From the IMG/VR virus record IMGVR_UViG_2698536418_000010: a stretch of 43,388 nt of DNA. One strand, given 5' to 3'. This document shows, piece by piece, positions 6,413 through 17,070 of the stretch. The position numbers and the translations under genes were made by a program. Position 1 is the first letter of the stretch. The number at the start of each line of letters is the position of its first letter. The DNA is from a virus. Its lineage: Duplodnaviria > Heunggongvirae > Uroviricota > Caudoviricetes. The notes under the pieces were generated by a model, which was given only the letters and a program-made list of their open reading frames with translations, was not told the DNA's origin and did no database searches.

Positions 6413-6820
6413 AATTATCTCCATTTTTACAAATGAATTTTGTCGATGCGGTGCCTGGTGCCTCCAGGTGACGTTAACCAGTTAACAATTAACGCCGGAT
6501 AATCCACCCATAACACTGATGCTTTTAACTGTGCCGCGTGCGCTTAGCCGCATTCACCGCATCACAAAATTCACTTTAAAAAGGGGCGGCAGGGCAGCCA
6601 CGGAGTAGAACTGATGCCGCCAAAGACTACACATAGCAATGTCGTTATTTACAACCGGAGGCGCACTCCCACCATTTAAATTTAACAGACAAGACCGACT
6701 CTTTATGGATATCGGAAATGCGCCTTCGTGTTGTGCCCGGTTTTATTTCACCACCTCCGGGCTTTGGTGGTTTCTGCTATACCCCTACAGCGAGAATATT
6801 GAATTAATCCAAATAATGGA

Positions 6821-11405: not shown

Positions 11406-11618
11406 ATGTCAAATACACAGAAAATTATTAACACTGAAAAATATAACGAGTGGGTGAAAAAATTCTCTGAGCAGATTTTTAAAATTACTGGCGACGAGAA
11501 TGTGGCAAAAAATGAATTGGAACCGTGGACACCTGAAGGAAACGCACCAAATTATTGCTGGTGGGAGGTTGATCCGGTTGATGCTGCAAATGAAGCCATG
11601 AGTTACCACAACGATTAA
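11406..11618 (+). CDS. Small hypothetical protein (70 aa)
   Basis: GGAGG RBS inside the repeat, ATG at 11406. Confidence 0.55.
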   Translation: MSNTQKIINTEKYNEWVKKFSEQIFKITGDENVAKNELEPWTPEGNAPNYCWWEVDPVDAANEAMSYHND

Positions 11619-12709: not shown

Positions 12710-12720
12710 GGTTCCATTGT

Positions 12721-13018
12721 TTAACTATCTAATATTGTGCTAAATCTTTTTATAACCATCAAGAATGTTACTACGGTAAAAAAGAAGGATGAGTATGCTA
12801 AATAACTGATTATGTAAGCAGGGGTTGCGAAATACCATTTTTTTAATTCACTTGGGGGTTCTGGGAGAAAATATATTGCAACCGAAAAAATAACTAACGC
12901 TACAGATGTTAATATGGCATAAGAAACATTGTGACATAATTGCTCATATACGGTTTTATTATTATTTAAAATTATTAGATTTGAACGTGGTTTGTTGTTT
13001 TCCTCAATGTCTGAAATT
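12721..13018 (-). CDS. Open +1-frame continuation of the membrane protein gene (adds 2 predicted TM helices); reachable by a 1-nt change in the A7 tract
   Basis: No stop in the +1 frame from 13017 to 12724; encodes …YAILTSVALVIFSVAIYFL… and …YIISYLAYSSFFFTVVTFLMVI…; no in-frame ATG/GTG/TTG start. Confidence 0.4.
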
Positions 13019-13276
13019 TTAAATACAGTTTTTTTGTTTTTGATCGTAGATCATAATAACCGCGCTCATTAATAGTGCGGTAGTAATTGCTCCAAAGTTA
13101 ACAAAAACAGATGCGATAGAGGTTTTCATTATCCCATAGGTAAAACATATGATTAATGATAATGTAAGAGGAATGATGAAGTGTATTGCGATGTCTTCGA
13201 GTAAAATATTTCCGCGTTGATCCGACATTGTTGTGTAATGTTTTTTTATTACACTCATTACGTTAATCTTGTTCAT
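13019..13276 (-). CDS. Small 2-TM membrane protein (85 aa), translationally coupled to upstream gene; candidate effector
   Basis: ATGA overlap with 310-aa ORF; two hydrophobic helices; AT-rich. Confidence 0.7.
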   Translation of the reverse strand: MNKINVMSVIKKHYTTMSDQRGNILLEDIAIHFIIPLTLSLIICFTYGIMKTSIASVFVNFGAITTALLMSAVIMIYDQKQKNCI

Positions 13277-14205
13277 ATTTTTACTCCCCCATTACCACTA
13301 TGTAACTCACTTAGTATATCATTCGCAATGATTTTAACAGTGTCATGAAGTGCTTTAAGATCGGGGATTCCTGTAGATGCGTTTATGTTTAAGTCGTTAT
13401 CATCTAATTCGGCAGAAATTCCTTTTCTTAAGATGGTGTCGTAATTAAAAATGACTGTTCTATTGCCTAATTGTAAACTAACTTTTATTGCGTCACACTT
13501 ATCTTCAATTATTTCTATTATATTTCCTAGTTTTTTGTCTTTTAAGTCTTTAAAACTACCAAATACGCCTTGATTTGCTTTTATTACCAAATCAGTTTTG
13601 ATGTTTGTTTTGTTATTTCCGAATGAATCCGTGATGTCCTTTGGTGCTTTGTAACCTTGGGCTTTTATTTGTTTTAATTCTGAATCAAGGATGTGTTGGG
13701 GAATTTTTTTGTGGCAAAGGGGATTGATTCTCGCTTCAAGTTTATATTTTGTTTTCAAGTGGTCTAGTAATGCATCAGAGAGTGTGCTGCGAGCAGAAAT
13801 ATTGTCATTAGCGTGAAATGCTATAATCCCTTCTTCTAAATTGTCTGGCAAAAATATTAAAATGTAACGCTGTTTGAGAGTTACATCGTTGATAGTTGTT
13901 GTATAACGTATTTTAGTAAGTTTATCGTCTTTTATTTCACTGCTCTCACCATATTTCCCAACCTTTACATATCCATATATTACTTGGTTTTGAGCATCAA
14001 AGGTGAGTGATGTGTGTTGTTCAAGAGAAACCTTTGTTTTCGAGAGACCAAATTCAATAGGTGTGTTTTTATAGCTATTAAAATACTCAACAAATAATTC
14101 ATATGCTGTTTTTTTATCGCTTAAACCTAGGTTGTTTAGTCTTTTGCTGGTTCGGCTGCCCTTGTGGGTTAACACACGGAATGAATAGAAGTTAACGCTG
14201 TGCAT
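13273..14205 (-). CDS. Hypothetical 310-aa soluble protein, first gene of AT-rich accessory cassette (candidate Abi/exclusion sensor)
   Basis: AAAGGA RBS before ATG at 14205; low GC relative to flanks; no nucleotide-binding motif seen. Confidence 0.8.
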   Translation of the reverse strand: MHSVNFYSFRVLTHKGSRTSKRLNNLGLSDKKTAYELFVEYFNSYKNTPIEFGLSKTKVSLEQHTSLTFDAQNQVIYGYVKVGKYGESSEIKDDKLTKIRYTTTINDVTLKQRYILIFLPDNLEEGIIAFHANDNISARSTLSDALLDHLKTKYKLEARINPLCHKKIPQHILDSELKQIKAQGYKAPKDITDSFGNNKTNIKTDLVIKANQGVFGSFKDLKDKKLGNIIEIIEDKCDAIKVSLQLGNRTVIFNYDTILRKGISAELDDNDLNINASTGIPDLKALHDTVKIIANDILSELHSGNGGVKI

Positions 14206-14529
14206 GAAAAGTCCTTTTGAACATATAGGAATATATTAGAGCATGTATGTGTGCAATGCATAAAAGGAAAAGCTACCGCAAGGCGACTCCACCCACAGAT
14301 AGCTCTTAACTGATTGTTTGTAAAAAATAATACATTAATTATCTTCTGTGTAAAGAGGGAAACAGCCTTAGGGTAAGGGACACGAGTTGGAGGAGGATTG
14401 GTGAAATTTGCGTTGAGGATAAAACGATTTGCGGGAAAAGGATAGTTAAGTAGAATAGCTGCGGGTGCTTGAGGCTGTCTGCCTCGGGCATGAACACCAA
14501 CGGCAGATAGATAAAAGCCCCACCCGACT

Positions 14530-14600
14530 ATAAATCGAAGTGAGGCCCCTATATGCTCGTCACATATAGATTGCCTCTTACGGACCGAAAGGTCAAGGAG
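14530..14600 (-). ncRNA. Expected position of Sok-like antisense RNA (approximate)
   Basis: By analogy with hok/sok loci where antisense RNA overlaps the mok/hok leader; boundaries not defined. Confidence 0.25.
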
Positions 14601-14609
14601 AAGCAGGCT

Positions 14610-14765
14610 ATGAAGCAGCAAAAGGCGATGTTAGTCGCCCTGATCGTCATCTGTTTAACCGTCATAGTGACGGCACTGGTAACGAGGAAAGACCTCTGCG
14701 AGGTACGAATCCGAACCGGCCAGACGGAGGTCGCTGTCTTCACAGCTTACGAACCTGAGGAGTAA
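14610..14765 (+). CDS. hok: Hok/Gef-family type I toxin (51 aa)
   Basis: MKQQKAMLVALIVICLTVIVTALVTRKDLCEVRIRTGQTEVAVFTAYEPEE; in-frame upstream extension from 14553 (mok-like). Confidence 0.9.
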   Translation: MKQQKAMLVALIVICLTVIVTALVTRKDLCEVRIRTGQTEVAVFTAYEPEE

Positions 14766-14772
14766 GAGACCT

Positions 14773-14794
14773 GGCGGGGGAGAAATCTCCCGCC
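14773..14794 (+). other. 3' stem-loop of hok mRNA (ggcggg…cccgcc)
   Basis: 6-bp GC stem directly after hok stop, no U-run. Confidence 0.4.
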
Positions 14795-15072
14795 ACCTCT
14801 GATGTGTCAGGCATCCTCAACGCACCCGCACTTAACCCGCTTCAGCGCTGATTTATGGGGATCCCTCAGCGTTTCGGCGGGTTTTTTGTTGCGCGCTGAA
14901 TGCGCAGGGTGAAAAATAACCATATATTTGATTATATACACAACATAAAATAAAAGTCATTGCACCTGCACATTAAATAATCAAATATACGGCGTGAAAT
15001 AAATATTTTTCAGATTAATATTTTTGTCTCTATGTAGATATAACCGTTTGTACTTATAAACCTGGAGGCATC

Positions 15073-15285
15073 GTGGAAAAAATAAAGAAACTATTTAGTA
15101 GCAAATACGCAGTCATACGTCGTGATGACCTGTCAGTTATAGTCGAAATGGATTACTTCCCTGAAACCCCAAAATCAATGATGTATCGTAATGGTCGAAA
15201 GGCAATTTTTTTACCGATGAGGGTAAGTGACATTATGGGAAATGATAAACTGCTGGATGAATTGCGAGTCAGAGCATCCTGTTAG
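15073..15285 (+). CDS. Hypothetical small protein (GTG start)
   Basis: GGAGG RBS then GTG at 15073; weak. Confidence 0.35.
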   Translation: MEKIKKLFSSKYAVIRRDDLSVIVEMDYFPETPKSMMYRNGRKAIFLPMRVSDIMGNDKLLDELRVRASC

Positions 15286-16797: not shown

Positions 16798-16885
16798 CTC
16801 AATCTGTTATCCGGGGCTATATTCCTCACGCGCCAGCAAAATCTGGCGTCGGGATTAGGAACCCCGGATAGAGACCGCGACAGAC

Positions 16886-16908
16886 ACACGCCGCGAGCGT
16901 GTTTTTTA
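16886..16908 (+). terminator. Rho-independent terminator (acacgc-cgcga-gcgtgt + T6), candidate tR'
   Basis: Stem-loop followed by tttttt, about 90 bp after Q. Confidence 0.65.
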
Positions 16909-17070
16909 TTGTCGTATGCACGCGCACATCTGAATTATGGTGGGGCGTATGGGGGAGCTGAAAAGCTCGCCGGTTGGTTTCCCGGTAGTTCCTAACCCTG
17001 TACGTCTCACCACCCGATGATTAGGAACCTGACGGTGGTGATGGTTTAGAAACCACCAGAGGGCGTCATT

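Follow-up and report, generated by a model that had tools for sequence, protein, structure and literature searches.

Gene content and organization of the locus

The DNA analysed here is a 43,388-nucleotide viral sequence (referred to below as the window), and its plus strand carries at 14610–14765 a gene for a 51-residue Hok toxin. The predicted protein matches the Pfam family HOK_GEF (PF01848) over model positions 1–42 of 42 with 83.6 bits against a cut-off of 22 (E 7.2e-24), and PHROG 251, 'MokW-like host killing', at 7e-33; in NCBIfam its scores stay below the curated cut-offs of both Hok models (49 vs 73 and 40 vs 89), and PADLOC has no model that matches it. Aligned to the known hok loci, the toxin is 98% identical to K-12 HokD, 90% to HokW, 84% to HokC and 45% to the Hok protein of plasmid R1. 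Its Shine-Dalgarno sequence, AAGGAG, is read directly from the sequence at 14595–14600 and is invariant in the relatives.

A second reading frame of 70 codons, mok, begins at an ATG at 14553, overlaps hok in the same frame and ends with it at 14765. It has a Shine-Dalgarno sequence of its own (GAGG, 14542–14545) 7 nt upstream of the ATG, and among 48 distinct related loci 43 keep the frame open, though codons 2–6 are hypervariable. Relative to the 933W type, mok of the window type has two compensating 1-nt indels, which alter Mok residues 8–14 and also hold the spacer of the putative Sok promoter described below at 17 nt. The overlapping frame through which hok is translated in this family is present, and translational coupling of the two genes is predicted from it.

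We place a putative hok promoter at 14429–14456 by direct reading of the sequence, with a −35 hexamer TTGCGG (14429–14434) that is weak (3/6 matches to consensus), a 16-nt spacer, and a −10 hexamer TAGAAT (14451–14456). The region is kept in 933W, PPompW and PEC148, and K-12 hokC has TATAAT at the same place. The −10 hexamer ends 7 nt ahead of position 1 of the Rfam model RF01794, the full length of which matches 14463–14612 (102.9 bits, gathering score 59, E 2e-22). This model is named 'sok' and matches the sense strand of the hok leader, so that its match marks the target of the antisense RNA and not the gene for that RNA. With model position 1 as the 5′ end and the U-tract of the terminator as the 3′ end, the full-length mok-hok mRNA would be 425 nt long (14463–14887, plus strand). 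It can be aligned from end to end with 47 distinct related loci, and its minimum free energy (MFE) fold of −182.5 kcal/mol is far more stable than those of shuffled sequences (z −7.8). A GC-rich stem-loop follows the hok stop codon at 14772–14795 (10 bp, −22.1 kcal/mol, z −4.7).

An earlier note on this DNA had proposed a hok/sok-type type I toxin locus, with a 51-residue Hok/Gef toxin, an in-frame mok-like extension from 14553, a leader beginning near 14460 and a GC stem-loop right after the stop. These proposals are all borne out, the leader start to within a few bases. The locus was also correctly assigned to the interval between the replication genes (DnaC-like, DUF1627, DUF977) and the Q region (DUF1367/YbcO/DUF1133). 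The module as a whole is 98% identical to the PPompW prophage 'gef', 97% to E. coli PEC148 and 86% to hokW/mokW/sokW of 933W, and since it is this similar to annotated hok/gef loci a chance resemblance is excluded. The module type and near-identical alleles are already known.

A predicted RNA switch and its putative antisense regulator

The two ends of the mRNA are complementary. The translational activator element (tac, GGGUGCUUGAGG) occupies 14463–14474 and the fold-back inhibitory element (fbi, CCUCAACGCACCC) 14815–14827, and in the MFE fold of the full-length mRNA they form a 12-bp helix interrupted by a single bulged C. All 48 related mRNAs are predicted to pair in this way, with tac invariant across the alignment and fbi 100% paired in the 48 sequences; the long-range closure that characterizes hok mRNAs is therefore predicted for this one also. 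Compared with plasmid R1 (GGCGC.../...GCGCC), both strands of the helix are changed (GGGUGC.../...GCACCC) and the pairing is kept.

Beside tac, a 5′ hairpin at 14475–14510 (helix 14475–14483 with 14502–14510) forms in both the full-length and the truncated folds. Its helix is 99% paired in the alignment, where four sequences show a double-sided change of one pair from A-U to G-C, and by analogy with the R1 model (PMC9841398) it is a candidate co-transcriptional metastable structure. The ucb box that follows (AAGCCCC, 14515–14521) acts as an anti-Shine-Dalgarno element in the full-length fold, where its GCCCC pairs with the mok Shine-Dalgarno sequence and sequesters it. When the RNA is cut before fbi, tac takes up ucb in the MFE fold, and in the centroid of the truncated fold the mok Shine-Dalgarno sequence pairs with the dcb box (GCCUC, 14573–14577), which is also found in local folds; the latter pairing recurs in 15/15 allele variants. 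The hok Shine-Dalgarno sequence pairs with 14573–14580 in the full-length and truncated folds alike. The dcb box overlaps the Sok −10 hexamer on the opposite strand, an overlap reported for R1 too (PMC9841398).

In R1, refolding to tac/ucb and Shine-Dalgarno/dcb pairs after 3′ truncation is the described switch, and activation needs 3′ processing (PMC9841398). The same refolding, with exposure of the antisense target, is predicted for the window sequence. Among the truncated relatives just 18 of 48 have tac/ucb in the MFE fold, the long-hairpin alleles retaining a closed hairpin, and we treat this count as a limit of MFE prediction and not as counter-evidence to the switch. Across the 48 related mRNAs the structure is 96% paired, with five pairs showing double-sided changes and tac/fbi unvarying, although this set, chosen at ≥98% Hok identity, is too closely related to prove the long-range pairing alone; inside the subfamily the structure is supported chiefly by conservation and less by covariation. 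One variable pair lies in the stem-loop after the stop, as G-C (4 sequences), G-U (26) or A-U (18). This stem-loop is the expected protective 3′ hairpin of the processed mRNA by analogy with R1, in which weakening the last stem-loop of the truncated mRNA by mutation abolishes toxicity (PMC9841398).

A putative promoter for the antisense RNA lies on the minus strand at 14568–14596, with a −35 hexamer TTGACC (14596–14591), a 17-nt spacer, and a −10 hexamer CAATCT (14573–14568) that matches the consensus at 2/6 positions, namely the two most conserved. Its counterparts are TTGACC-17-CACTCT in K-12 sokC, TTGCGC-17-TATCCT in R1, in which the −10 likewise overlaps dcb, and TTGCCT-17-TAACCT in 933W/Sp5. 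The position of the −10 is homologous to that of sokW, which was mutated for a 'pro-less' construct in Sp5 with primers YO-421/422 (Takada et al. 2021, PMC8621323). A consensus promoter and terminator scan of 14250–15100 missed the hok promoter, the Sok promoter and the terminator, because none of them passes its thresholds (≥4/6 per hexamer; terminator loop 3–8), and homology was used to place the promoters instead.

Transferring the 5′ end from the annotated sokW (933W) and sokC (K-12, annotated as an sRNA), each of which starts 8 nt past the mok ATG, we predict a Sok-type antisense RNA of about 50 nt at 14511–14561 on the minus strand. Its 5′ end, −10 and −35 line up with those of sokW and sokC as annotated, and with the Sp5 promoter that was mutated. 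The predicted fold (−21.1 kcal/mol, z −4.9) has nine unpaired nucleotides with the single-stranded 5′ sequence GACGAGCAU, then a stem-loop and a UUUU tail. The terminator hairpin of Sok is 21 nt shorter than in 933W, and hence the RNA would be about 50 nt rather than 71 nt long; Sok of R1 is 64 nt.

The predicted target is a hairpin at 14549–14569 on the plus strand, with a stem CUAUAUG/CAUAUAG and a loop CUCGUCA (14556–14562) that includes a YUNR-type CUCG. This loop would be met by the Sok 5′ tail GACGAGCAU, which is unpaired in the predicted fold. The YUNR U-turn is reportedly the defining motif of the target loop in the literature of the Gerdes laboratory.

The earlier note had proposed a prediction of the sok promoter on the minus strand, and held that absence of an antisense promoter or transcript together with a disrupted leader fold would indicate an unregulated remnant. 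A candidate promoter is present at the site homologous to the experimentally mutated sokW −10, and the predicted leader fold is intact. A remnant of this kind exists in K-12, where hokD (relF) of the Qin prophage encodes a toxin 98% identical to that of the window, has a near-identical 3′ UTR (stem-loop, fbi and terminator) and also lies upstream of the Q region, but has lost the whole leader: relBE is directly upstream, and there is no homology to tac, mok or sok. That the window locus has decayed likewise, with the toxin gene surviving and antisense control defunct or unneeded, would fit with the RefSeq labelling of its closest relatives merely as 'hokD', without sok or mok, and with the lack of promoters at the expected sites in the consensus scan. 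We regard this as very improbable, as tac, ucb, mok, the target hairpin, dcb, the Sok promoter and terminator, and fbi are all kept in the window, unlike in K-12 hokD, and non-coding sequence is conserved to the same degree as in the functional 933W/Sp5 locus. The window has mok and sok parts that RefSeq leaves unannotated in the relatives, and a more suitable annotation than 'hokD' alone is hok/mok/sok, a type I toxin-antitoxin locus of the HokD/HokW branch.

The closest tested relative is hokW-mokW-sokW of 933W/Sp5 (AF125520; PMC8621323). It is also carried by a lambdoid prophage, with 86% nucleotide identity over ~400 nt and the 90% identical toxin; tac, ucb, the mok ATG, dcb, the hok Shine-Dalgarno sequence and fbi are the same as in the window, and the Sok 5′ end and −10 are at homologous positions. 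The 933W locus is near the right end of the genome, whereas that of the window is between the replication and Q regions, and it has no canonical terminator after fbi, unlike the window. The tac/fbi, ucb and dcb elements, the overlapping mok, an antisense RNA against the mok start and the same predicted switch are shared with hok/sok (parB) of R1 as well, although R1 is a plasmid and the window a chromosomal prophage, and their toxins are just 45% identical. K-12 hokC/gef-sokC has an 84% identical toxin, the same leader and the same type of Sok promoter.

We conclude that 14463–14887 (plus strand) is most likely, with a probability of nearly nine in ten, a complete prophage hok/mok/sok type I module of the HokD/HokW branch that works as in R1. 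It is an ordinary and apparently intact copy of a known RNA-controlled toxin-antitoxin module, carried by a lambdoid E. coli prophage. At the level of sequence and fold prediction the locus shows every sequence element, the complementarities between them, the predicted switch and homology to a validated system, while transcription of both RNAs, processing, toxicity and a biological role are inferred.

If the module works in this way, the weak hok promoter would give rise to a stable 425-nt mRNA in a closed form, with 5′ tac paired to 3′ fbi and the ucb box holding the mok ribosome-binding site; mok and hok would therefore be untranslated and Sok unable to bind. Slow 3′ trimming would strip the terminator and fbi and stop at the GC stem-loop after the stop codon, upon which tac would capture ucb, the mok Shine-Dalgarno sequence would shift onto dcb, and the target hairpin at the mok start would be exposed. 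As long as Sok synthesis continues, the free 5′ end (GACGAG) of the short-lived Sok would bind the target loop (CUCGUC), blocking translation of mok and the mok-dependent translation of hok, and the duplex would be degraded. Once Sok synthesis stops, the processed mRNA would be translated and the 51-residue Hok peptide would damage the inner membrane.

The insertion sequence scar and the variable recognition loop

The sole oddity of the module is a 32-base insertion sequence scar within its transcription terminator. In relatives the plain terminator reads CCCGC-TTCG-GCGGG-T5-6 (CCCGCTTCGGCGGG in the clean, unscarred form). In the window the Rho-independent terminator is lengthened to 14834–14887, with a U-tract at 14882–14887, an outer stem AACCCGCU/GGCGGGUU (pairs in 14834–14841 with 14876–14883) and an inner stem AGCGCUGA/UCAGCGUU, and folds at −27.0 kcal/mol versus −11.8 kcal/mol for the unscarred PEC148 allele. 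The 32 extra nucleotides (14848–14879) consist of a 22-nt IS4-family right end, CTGATTTATGGGGATCCCTCAG (14848–14869), and the second copy, CGTTTCGGCG (14870–14879), of a 10-nt target of which the first copy, CGCTTCAGCG, is at 14838–14847. They are absent from 46 of the 48 aligned relatives.

At the scar 27/27 nt match the right end of a ~1317-bp element found at 41 loci in Enterobacterales, whose transposase matches NCBIfam NF033591 (E 4e-103). Salmonella arizonae has a complete copy of this element inserted in its eno terminator, with the CCCGC-TTCG-GCGGG site likewise duplicated on either side. The terminal repeat identity and the target duplication mark the scar as an IS4-family remnant. 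The scar points to a source element that inserts into the loops of GC-rich hairpins, in many cases terminators. The same scar is in four other IMG/VR prophage contigs; a search of complete E. coli genomes found none. At least five prophage contexts, representing two leader types, carry the scarred allele.

Two other origins were considered. The scar contains BamHI and AfeI sites, but a unique event or an engineered linker is rejected since the sequence is a natural IS end that occurs in many Enterobacterales and the scar recurs in the four other prophage contigs. An IS186 or IS421 origin is also rejected, as the ends and the insertion site differ from those of these two elements, which are inserted in the stem-loop after the stop, in K-12 hokC and E. 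coli L73 respectively. The hok 3′ UTR has been struck by an IS4-family element in both K-12 hokC and the window: in hokC a full IS186 sits in the stem-loop ~20 nt past the stop and fbi is removed (PMC3562002), whereas in the window a different element entered the terminator loop, the 32-nt scar alone is left and fbi is intact.

The enlarged hairpin may alter termination or 3′ processing. Carried to its extreme, this would give an attenuated or locked module, in which all elements are present but the scar-stabilized hairpin slows or stops 3′-to-5′ exonucleases, so that the mRNA stays closed and untranslatable and the toxin is rarely or never released. The terminal hairpin is more than doubled in stability by the scar, and the stretch from fbi through the 3′ terminus spans ~73 nt as against ~40 nt in relatives; R1 activation depends on 3′ processing (PMC9841398), and insertion in the hok 3′ UTR is a recurrent route to loss of fbi control, as in K-12 hokC::IS186 (PMC3562002) and E. 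coli L73 hok::IS421. However, the scar has spared fbi, the base of the terminator stem and the U-tract, an effect of hairpin stability on processing is conjectural, and the persistence of the scarred allele in its several prophage contexts fits either function or neutrality. We consider a locked module unlikely and favor a working switch. The alleles with and without the 32-nt hairpin extension form a natural pair for studying 3′ processing in the arming of hok mRNA.

The other variable feature is the target loop. The hairpin is preserved in 15/15 sequence variants while its loop has at least 10 different sequences; the loop region is the highest-entropy segment of the mRNA, and hypervariability within the family is confined to the Sok recognition loop. 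The window has CUCGUCA/GACGAG as loop and Sok 5′ tail, 933W/Sp5 has CUGAACA/GUUCAG, and up to 10 places matching hok/sok were found per E. coli genome. The 24-nt segment 14547–14570, which takes in the target loop together with the 5′ tail of Sok, may determine specificity: its ten or more loop alleles share the hairpin, the mok frame and the promoter spacing, and may allow co-resident hok/sok copies to avoid cross-neutralizing each other, the window holding what may be one such allele, CUCGUCA. We put forward only tentatively, as somewhat less than an even chance, the joint reading in which this segment is a specificity cassette under diversifying selection and the IS scar retunes the speed at which the toxin mRNA is armed. 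The series of recognition-loop alleles can be used for tests of cross-talk among co-resident copies.

Distribution, neighboring cassette and possible role

The antisense region of the window allele occurs at ≥99% identity in ~590 complete E. coli records, and most of the region in 617 genomes, which suggests that the allele is maintained. The adjacent AT-rich cassette (13019–14205) was found in 37 genomes only, and close relatives of this hok adjoin other cargo. From these differences we conclude that hok and the cassette are independent modules; the compact accessory island that the earlier note had drawn around them holds as regards adjacency and location, but not as a single unit.

Searches of the cassette against PADLOC, Pfam and NCBIfam gave no match. 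Its 310-residue protein had no match in PADLOC, Pfam, NCBIfam and PDB sequence searches, and a profile comparison with lambda RexA was negative; the sole lead is a fold search, in which it has a RexA-like predicted fold. In E. coli L73 the membrane partner is a 184-residue hydrophobic protein with no similarity to RexB, whereas in the window the partner gene has a run of A7 instead of A6 and is frameshifted after approximately residue 82. An intact, co-transcribed RexB-like membrane partner is thus lacking in the window.

As to the role of the hok module, it could primarily protect the lysogen from other phages by abortive infection, operating by the same mechanism: shut-off of host transcription would lead to Sok decay and killing by Hok, with no part in the prophage's own lysis or in addiction. 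With R1 hok/sok on a high-copy plasmid, plating of T4 falls by 42% and its plaques are ~85% smaller (cited in PMC8621323), and the locus is in a cargo hotspot beside the protein with the RexA-like predicted fold. We view defence as the less probable role, at perhaps one chance in four, given that PADLOC does not match the window Hok, that the neighboring cassette is independent and frameshifted, and that the sole experiments on a prophage ortholog indicate an aid to lysis and release on induction (PMC8621323). In Sp5, HokW is toxic and is neutralized by sokW, which disappears on induction; with hokW-sokW lysis is faster and phage release upon prophage induction is doubled, and in the deletion mutant release is approximately halved (PMC8621323). 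By analogy with this closest tested relative, the window module would serve as an aid to lysis and release, with phage exclusion as the alternative, and would be a further copy of the module that has this function in Sp5.

Toxin frame, leader RNA and relatives

The ORF at 14610-14765 (+) encodes a 51-aa peptide that matches Pfam HOK_GEF over the entire model (E 7.2e-24; 83.6 bits against a cut-off of 22) and also PHROG 251, 'MokW-like host killing', bearing out the Hok/Gef toxin of the earlier note. Its identity to known Hok proteins falls from 98% (K-12 HokD) through 90% (HokW of phage 933W) and 84% (HokC/Gef) to 45% (Hok of plasmid R1). The ATG at 14553 is in frame with hok and lengthens the ORF to 70 aa, as expected of the proposed mok-like extension. 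A leader starting near 14460 and a GC stem-loop behind the stop had also been described; position 1 of the Rfam model RF01794 falls at 14463, and a 10-bp stem-loop is predicted at 14772-14795. The hok/sok-type interpretation was thus correct and the observation real. As to what the locus is, we put the probability of an R1-type hok/mok/sok mechanism at a little under nine in ten.

The RF01794 ('sok') match spans 14463-14612 (+) and model positions 1-157 (102.9 bits, gathering score 59, E 2e-22). Since it ends on the hok AUG, it describes the hok leader, which is the target of Sok, and not the antisense gene; a match named 'sok antitoxin' therefore lies on the sense strand, with the Sok gene opposite. 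A putative -10 hexamer, TAGAAT (14451-14456, +), has its last base 7 nt upstream of G14463, with which both the Rfam model and the conserved GGGUGCUUGAGG begin.

The RNA from 14463 to 14887 folds at -182.5 kcal/mol (z -7.8). In this full-length fold the 5' 12 nt of the mRNA (tac) pair with fbi (CCUCAACGCACCC, 14815-14827, +), and the mok Shine-Dalgarno sequence GAGG (14542-14545, +) is held by ucb, GCCCC (14517-14521, +). When the RNA is cut just before fbi, tac shifts onto AAGCCCC (14515-14521) in the MFE structure, and the centroid structure has the SD paired with dcb, GCCUC (14573-14577, +), enclosing a hairpin whose stem carries the mok AUG and whose loop carries CUCGUCA. In R1 the closed form has tac/fbi paired with ucb as anti-SD, 3' processing gives tac/ucb and SD/dcb pairing, and the processed RNA is protected by the last stem-loop (PMC9841398). 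The folds predicted here are those of this closed-to-open switch. The tac/fbi pair is GGGUGC/GCACCC here and GGCGC/GCGCC in R1; both strands have changed, but the pairing is kept.

We fetched 80 IMG/VR loci at a Hok identity of at least 98% and aligned the 48 distinct full-length mRNAs. The tac/fbi pairing is predicted in all 48, and the window structure is 96% paired across the set, compared to ∼40% when partners are slid by a few columns. Because these mRNAs are closely related, two-sided changes occur in only five pairs. The mok frame is open as far as the hok stop in 43 of the 48. One allele class (loci L058, L068, L077, L109 and L113) has a 2-nt deletion after the mok ATG, and its mok is a 19-aa out-of-frame product ending near the hok start rather than running through hok. 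The window type differs from the 933W type by a 1-nt deletion (ATT-GCC) and a 1-nt insertion (GGTCAAGG), which in combination preserve both the mok frame and the 17-nt spacer of the Sok promoter.

The 551-nt region finds matches at some level in 4712 of 5426 complete E. coli genomes, the best being 95-97% identical and labelled 'hokD' or 'Hok/Gef family protein'. Among phage records, 'gef' of the PPompW prophages is 98% identical and phage 933W, the record of which annotates mokW, hokW and sokW, is 86% identical; two IMG/VR prophage contigs match the window at 100% identity across 10 kb and 4.7 kb. The module is thus common and already in databases, and this locus represents a very well-known family in an ordinary form; public records contain copies of identical sequence.

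The putative antisense gene and its recognition segment

The annotated sokW (933W) and sokC (K-12) RNAs both have their 5' end 8 nt past the mok ATG, which corresponds to G14561 (-) in the window. On the minus strand, where the earlier note suggested looking for a sok promoter, a putative -35, TTGACC (14596-14591, -), is followed after 17 nt by a putative -10, CAATCT (14573-14568, -), at the homologous position, but a generic promoter scan did not report these weak hexamers, and we infer the promoter through homology. The K-12 sokC promoter reads TTGACC-17-CACTCT, that of 933W TTGCCT-17-TAACCT and that of R1 TTGCGC-17-TATCCT. In prophage Sp5, replacing precisely this hexamer region (primers YO-421/422) silenced sokW, and its protection was lost (PMC8621323). 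The predicted Sok of ∼50 nt begins with nine unpaired nucleotides (GACGAGCAU), followed by a stem-loop and UUUU (-21.1 kcal/mol, z -4.9). About 590 complete E. coli records, O157:H7 and O145 among them, contain the 96-nt antisense region of the window allele at no less than 99% identity, with no feature annotated under it.

Otherwise near-invariant, these hok loci have a single hypervariable stretch, 14547-14570 (alignment columns 107-131), which spans mok codons 1-6, the target loop and the Sok 5' tail. Column entropy reaches 0.70 there; hok has 0.02, and tac, dcb, fbi and the 3' UTR lie at 0.08-0.16. The 15 variants include at least 10 distinct loops, all within the same SD/dcb-closed hairpin, and complete E. 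coli genomes carry up to 10 matching places each. Judged by sequence, the loop variety would fit diversified Sok/target specificity among co-resident copies.

An insertion sequence scar in the terminator

The terminator of the relatives reads CCCGC-TTCG-GCGGG-T5-6, and in the window its loop holds 32 extra nt (scar, within 14838-14879): 22 nt of an IS4-family right end and a second copy of the 10-nt target. The inserted bases agree exactly with the right end of a ∼1317-bp element whose transposase matches NF033591 (E 4e-103) and whose ends (GCGCTGAGGGATCCCC.../...GGGGATCCCTCAGCGC) are IS10-like (CTGAGGGATCCCC). We found this element at 41 loci (L008-L048; for example L019:5508-6824, and L041, which is the whole element), mostly at contig ends, in Escherichia sp., Salmonella arizonae, Citrobacter, Pantoea, Kosakonia and other genera; Escherichia sp. 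MOD1-EC7003 has multiple copies. N3-6-GCGG follows in 27 of 37 distinct right flanks, with a T-run next in 12 of these 27, which indicates that the element targets GC-rich hairpin loops, in many cases those of rho-independent terminators. A complete copy lies inside the S. arizonae eno terminator, which has the same CCCGC-TTCG-GCGGG sequence.

The scar reads CGCTTCaGCG + CTGA + TTTATGGGGATCCCTCAG + CGtTTCGGCG, and would be explained as the product expected of a deletion between the left-tip (G/A)GCGCTGA repeat and its internal copy in the right end, resembling the 'nearly precise excision' of Tn10. This scar is shared by four IMG/VR prophage contigs, which between them have two distinct leader types, and is absent from all 5426 complete E. 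coli genomes. It raises the predicted stability of the terminal hairpin from -11.8 to -27.0 kcal/mol, and the main rival explanation builds on this: a hairpin so stabilised may slow 3' processing. However, the scarred allele retains an intact fbi, terminator stem base and U-tract.

IS insertions in hok 3' UTRs recur; IS186 lies after K-12 hokC (PMC3562002), and IS421 within the post-stop stem-loop of hok in E. coli L73. Both IS421 (L133:4325-4400) and IS186 (L004:300-335) sit in the GC stem-loop ∼20 nt past the hok stop, with fbi removed. Together with the scar, these sites give the hok 3' UTR two IS4-family hot spots, the stem-loop and the terminator loop. In 933W (L001:2920-2980) the sequence diverges after fbi and lacks the CCCGC...GCGGG-T terminator, and terminators are degraded or different in a dozen IMG/VR loci too.

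Possible role and prophage setting

The role of the locus is less certain than its identity. [quoted passage not shown] Partial exclusion of T4 by R1 hok/sok is cited in the same paper. By analogy, the locus could aid lysis and release, act in T4-type exclusion, or both. We regard the IS scar, the recognition-loop allele series and the RexA-like neighbour as modest by-products.

The window is a lambdoid prophage, in which HTH repressor and Cro-like genes and a YdaT-like gene are followed by a DnaC-like replication gene, DUF1627, DUF977, an AT-rich gene pair (31-33% GC; 13019-14205, -), hok/sok, a PHROG 1813 gene, DUF1367, YbcO, a DUF1133 Q-type gene, and the isrK and C4 RNAs. The accessory island placed by the earlier note between the replication genes and the Q region is correctly sited, but hok and the AT-rich cassette are modules independent of each other: 37 genomes have the cassette, and hok relatives adjoin other genes.

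A RexAB-like exclusion pair is no more than a lead for the cassette, and it is probably off in the window. The second gene of the cassette (12720-13276, -) has an E. coli L73 counterpart encoding a hydrophobic protein of 184 aa; in the window, A7 in place of A6 (about 13029-13035) shifts the frame after about residue 82, with the remainder in the +1 frame. This could reflect a pseudogene, slippage-type phase variation or a sequencing error. Locus L131 covers the A-run and is identical to the window; the identical IMG/VR contigs begin at 11514 and 13134.

Other Rfam matches lie at 1-104, 1666-1844, 6584-6635 and 16817-17017. SdsR/RyeB with SraC/RyeA at the left edge is probably the chromosomal flank of the prophage; the further matches are RalA antitoxin RNA (224 bits), DicF, isrK and C4 antisense RNA, with the C4 a1/b1 target just downstream of the Q-type gene.
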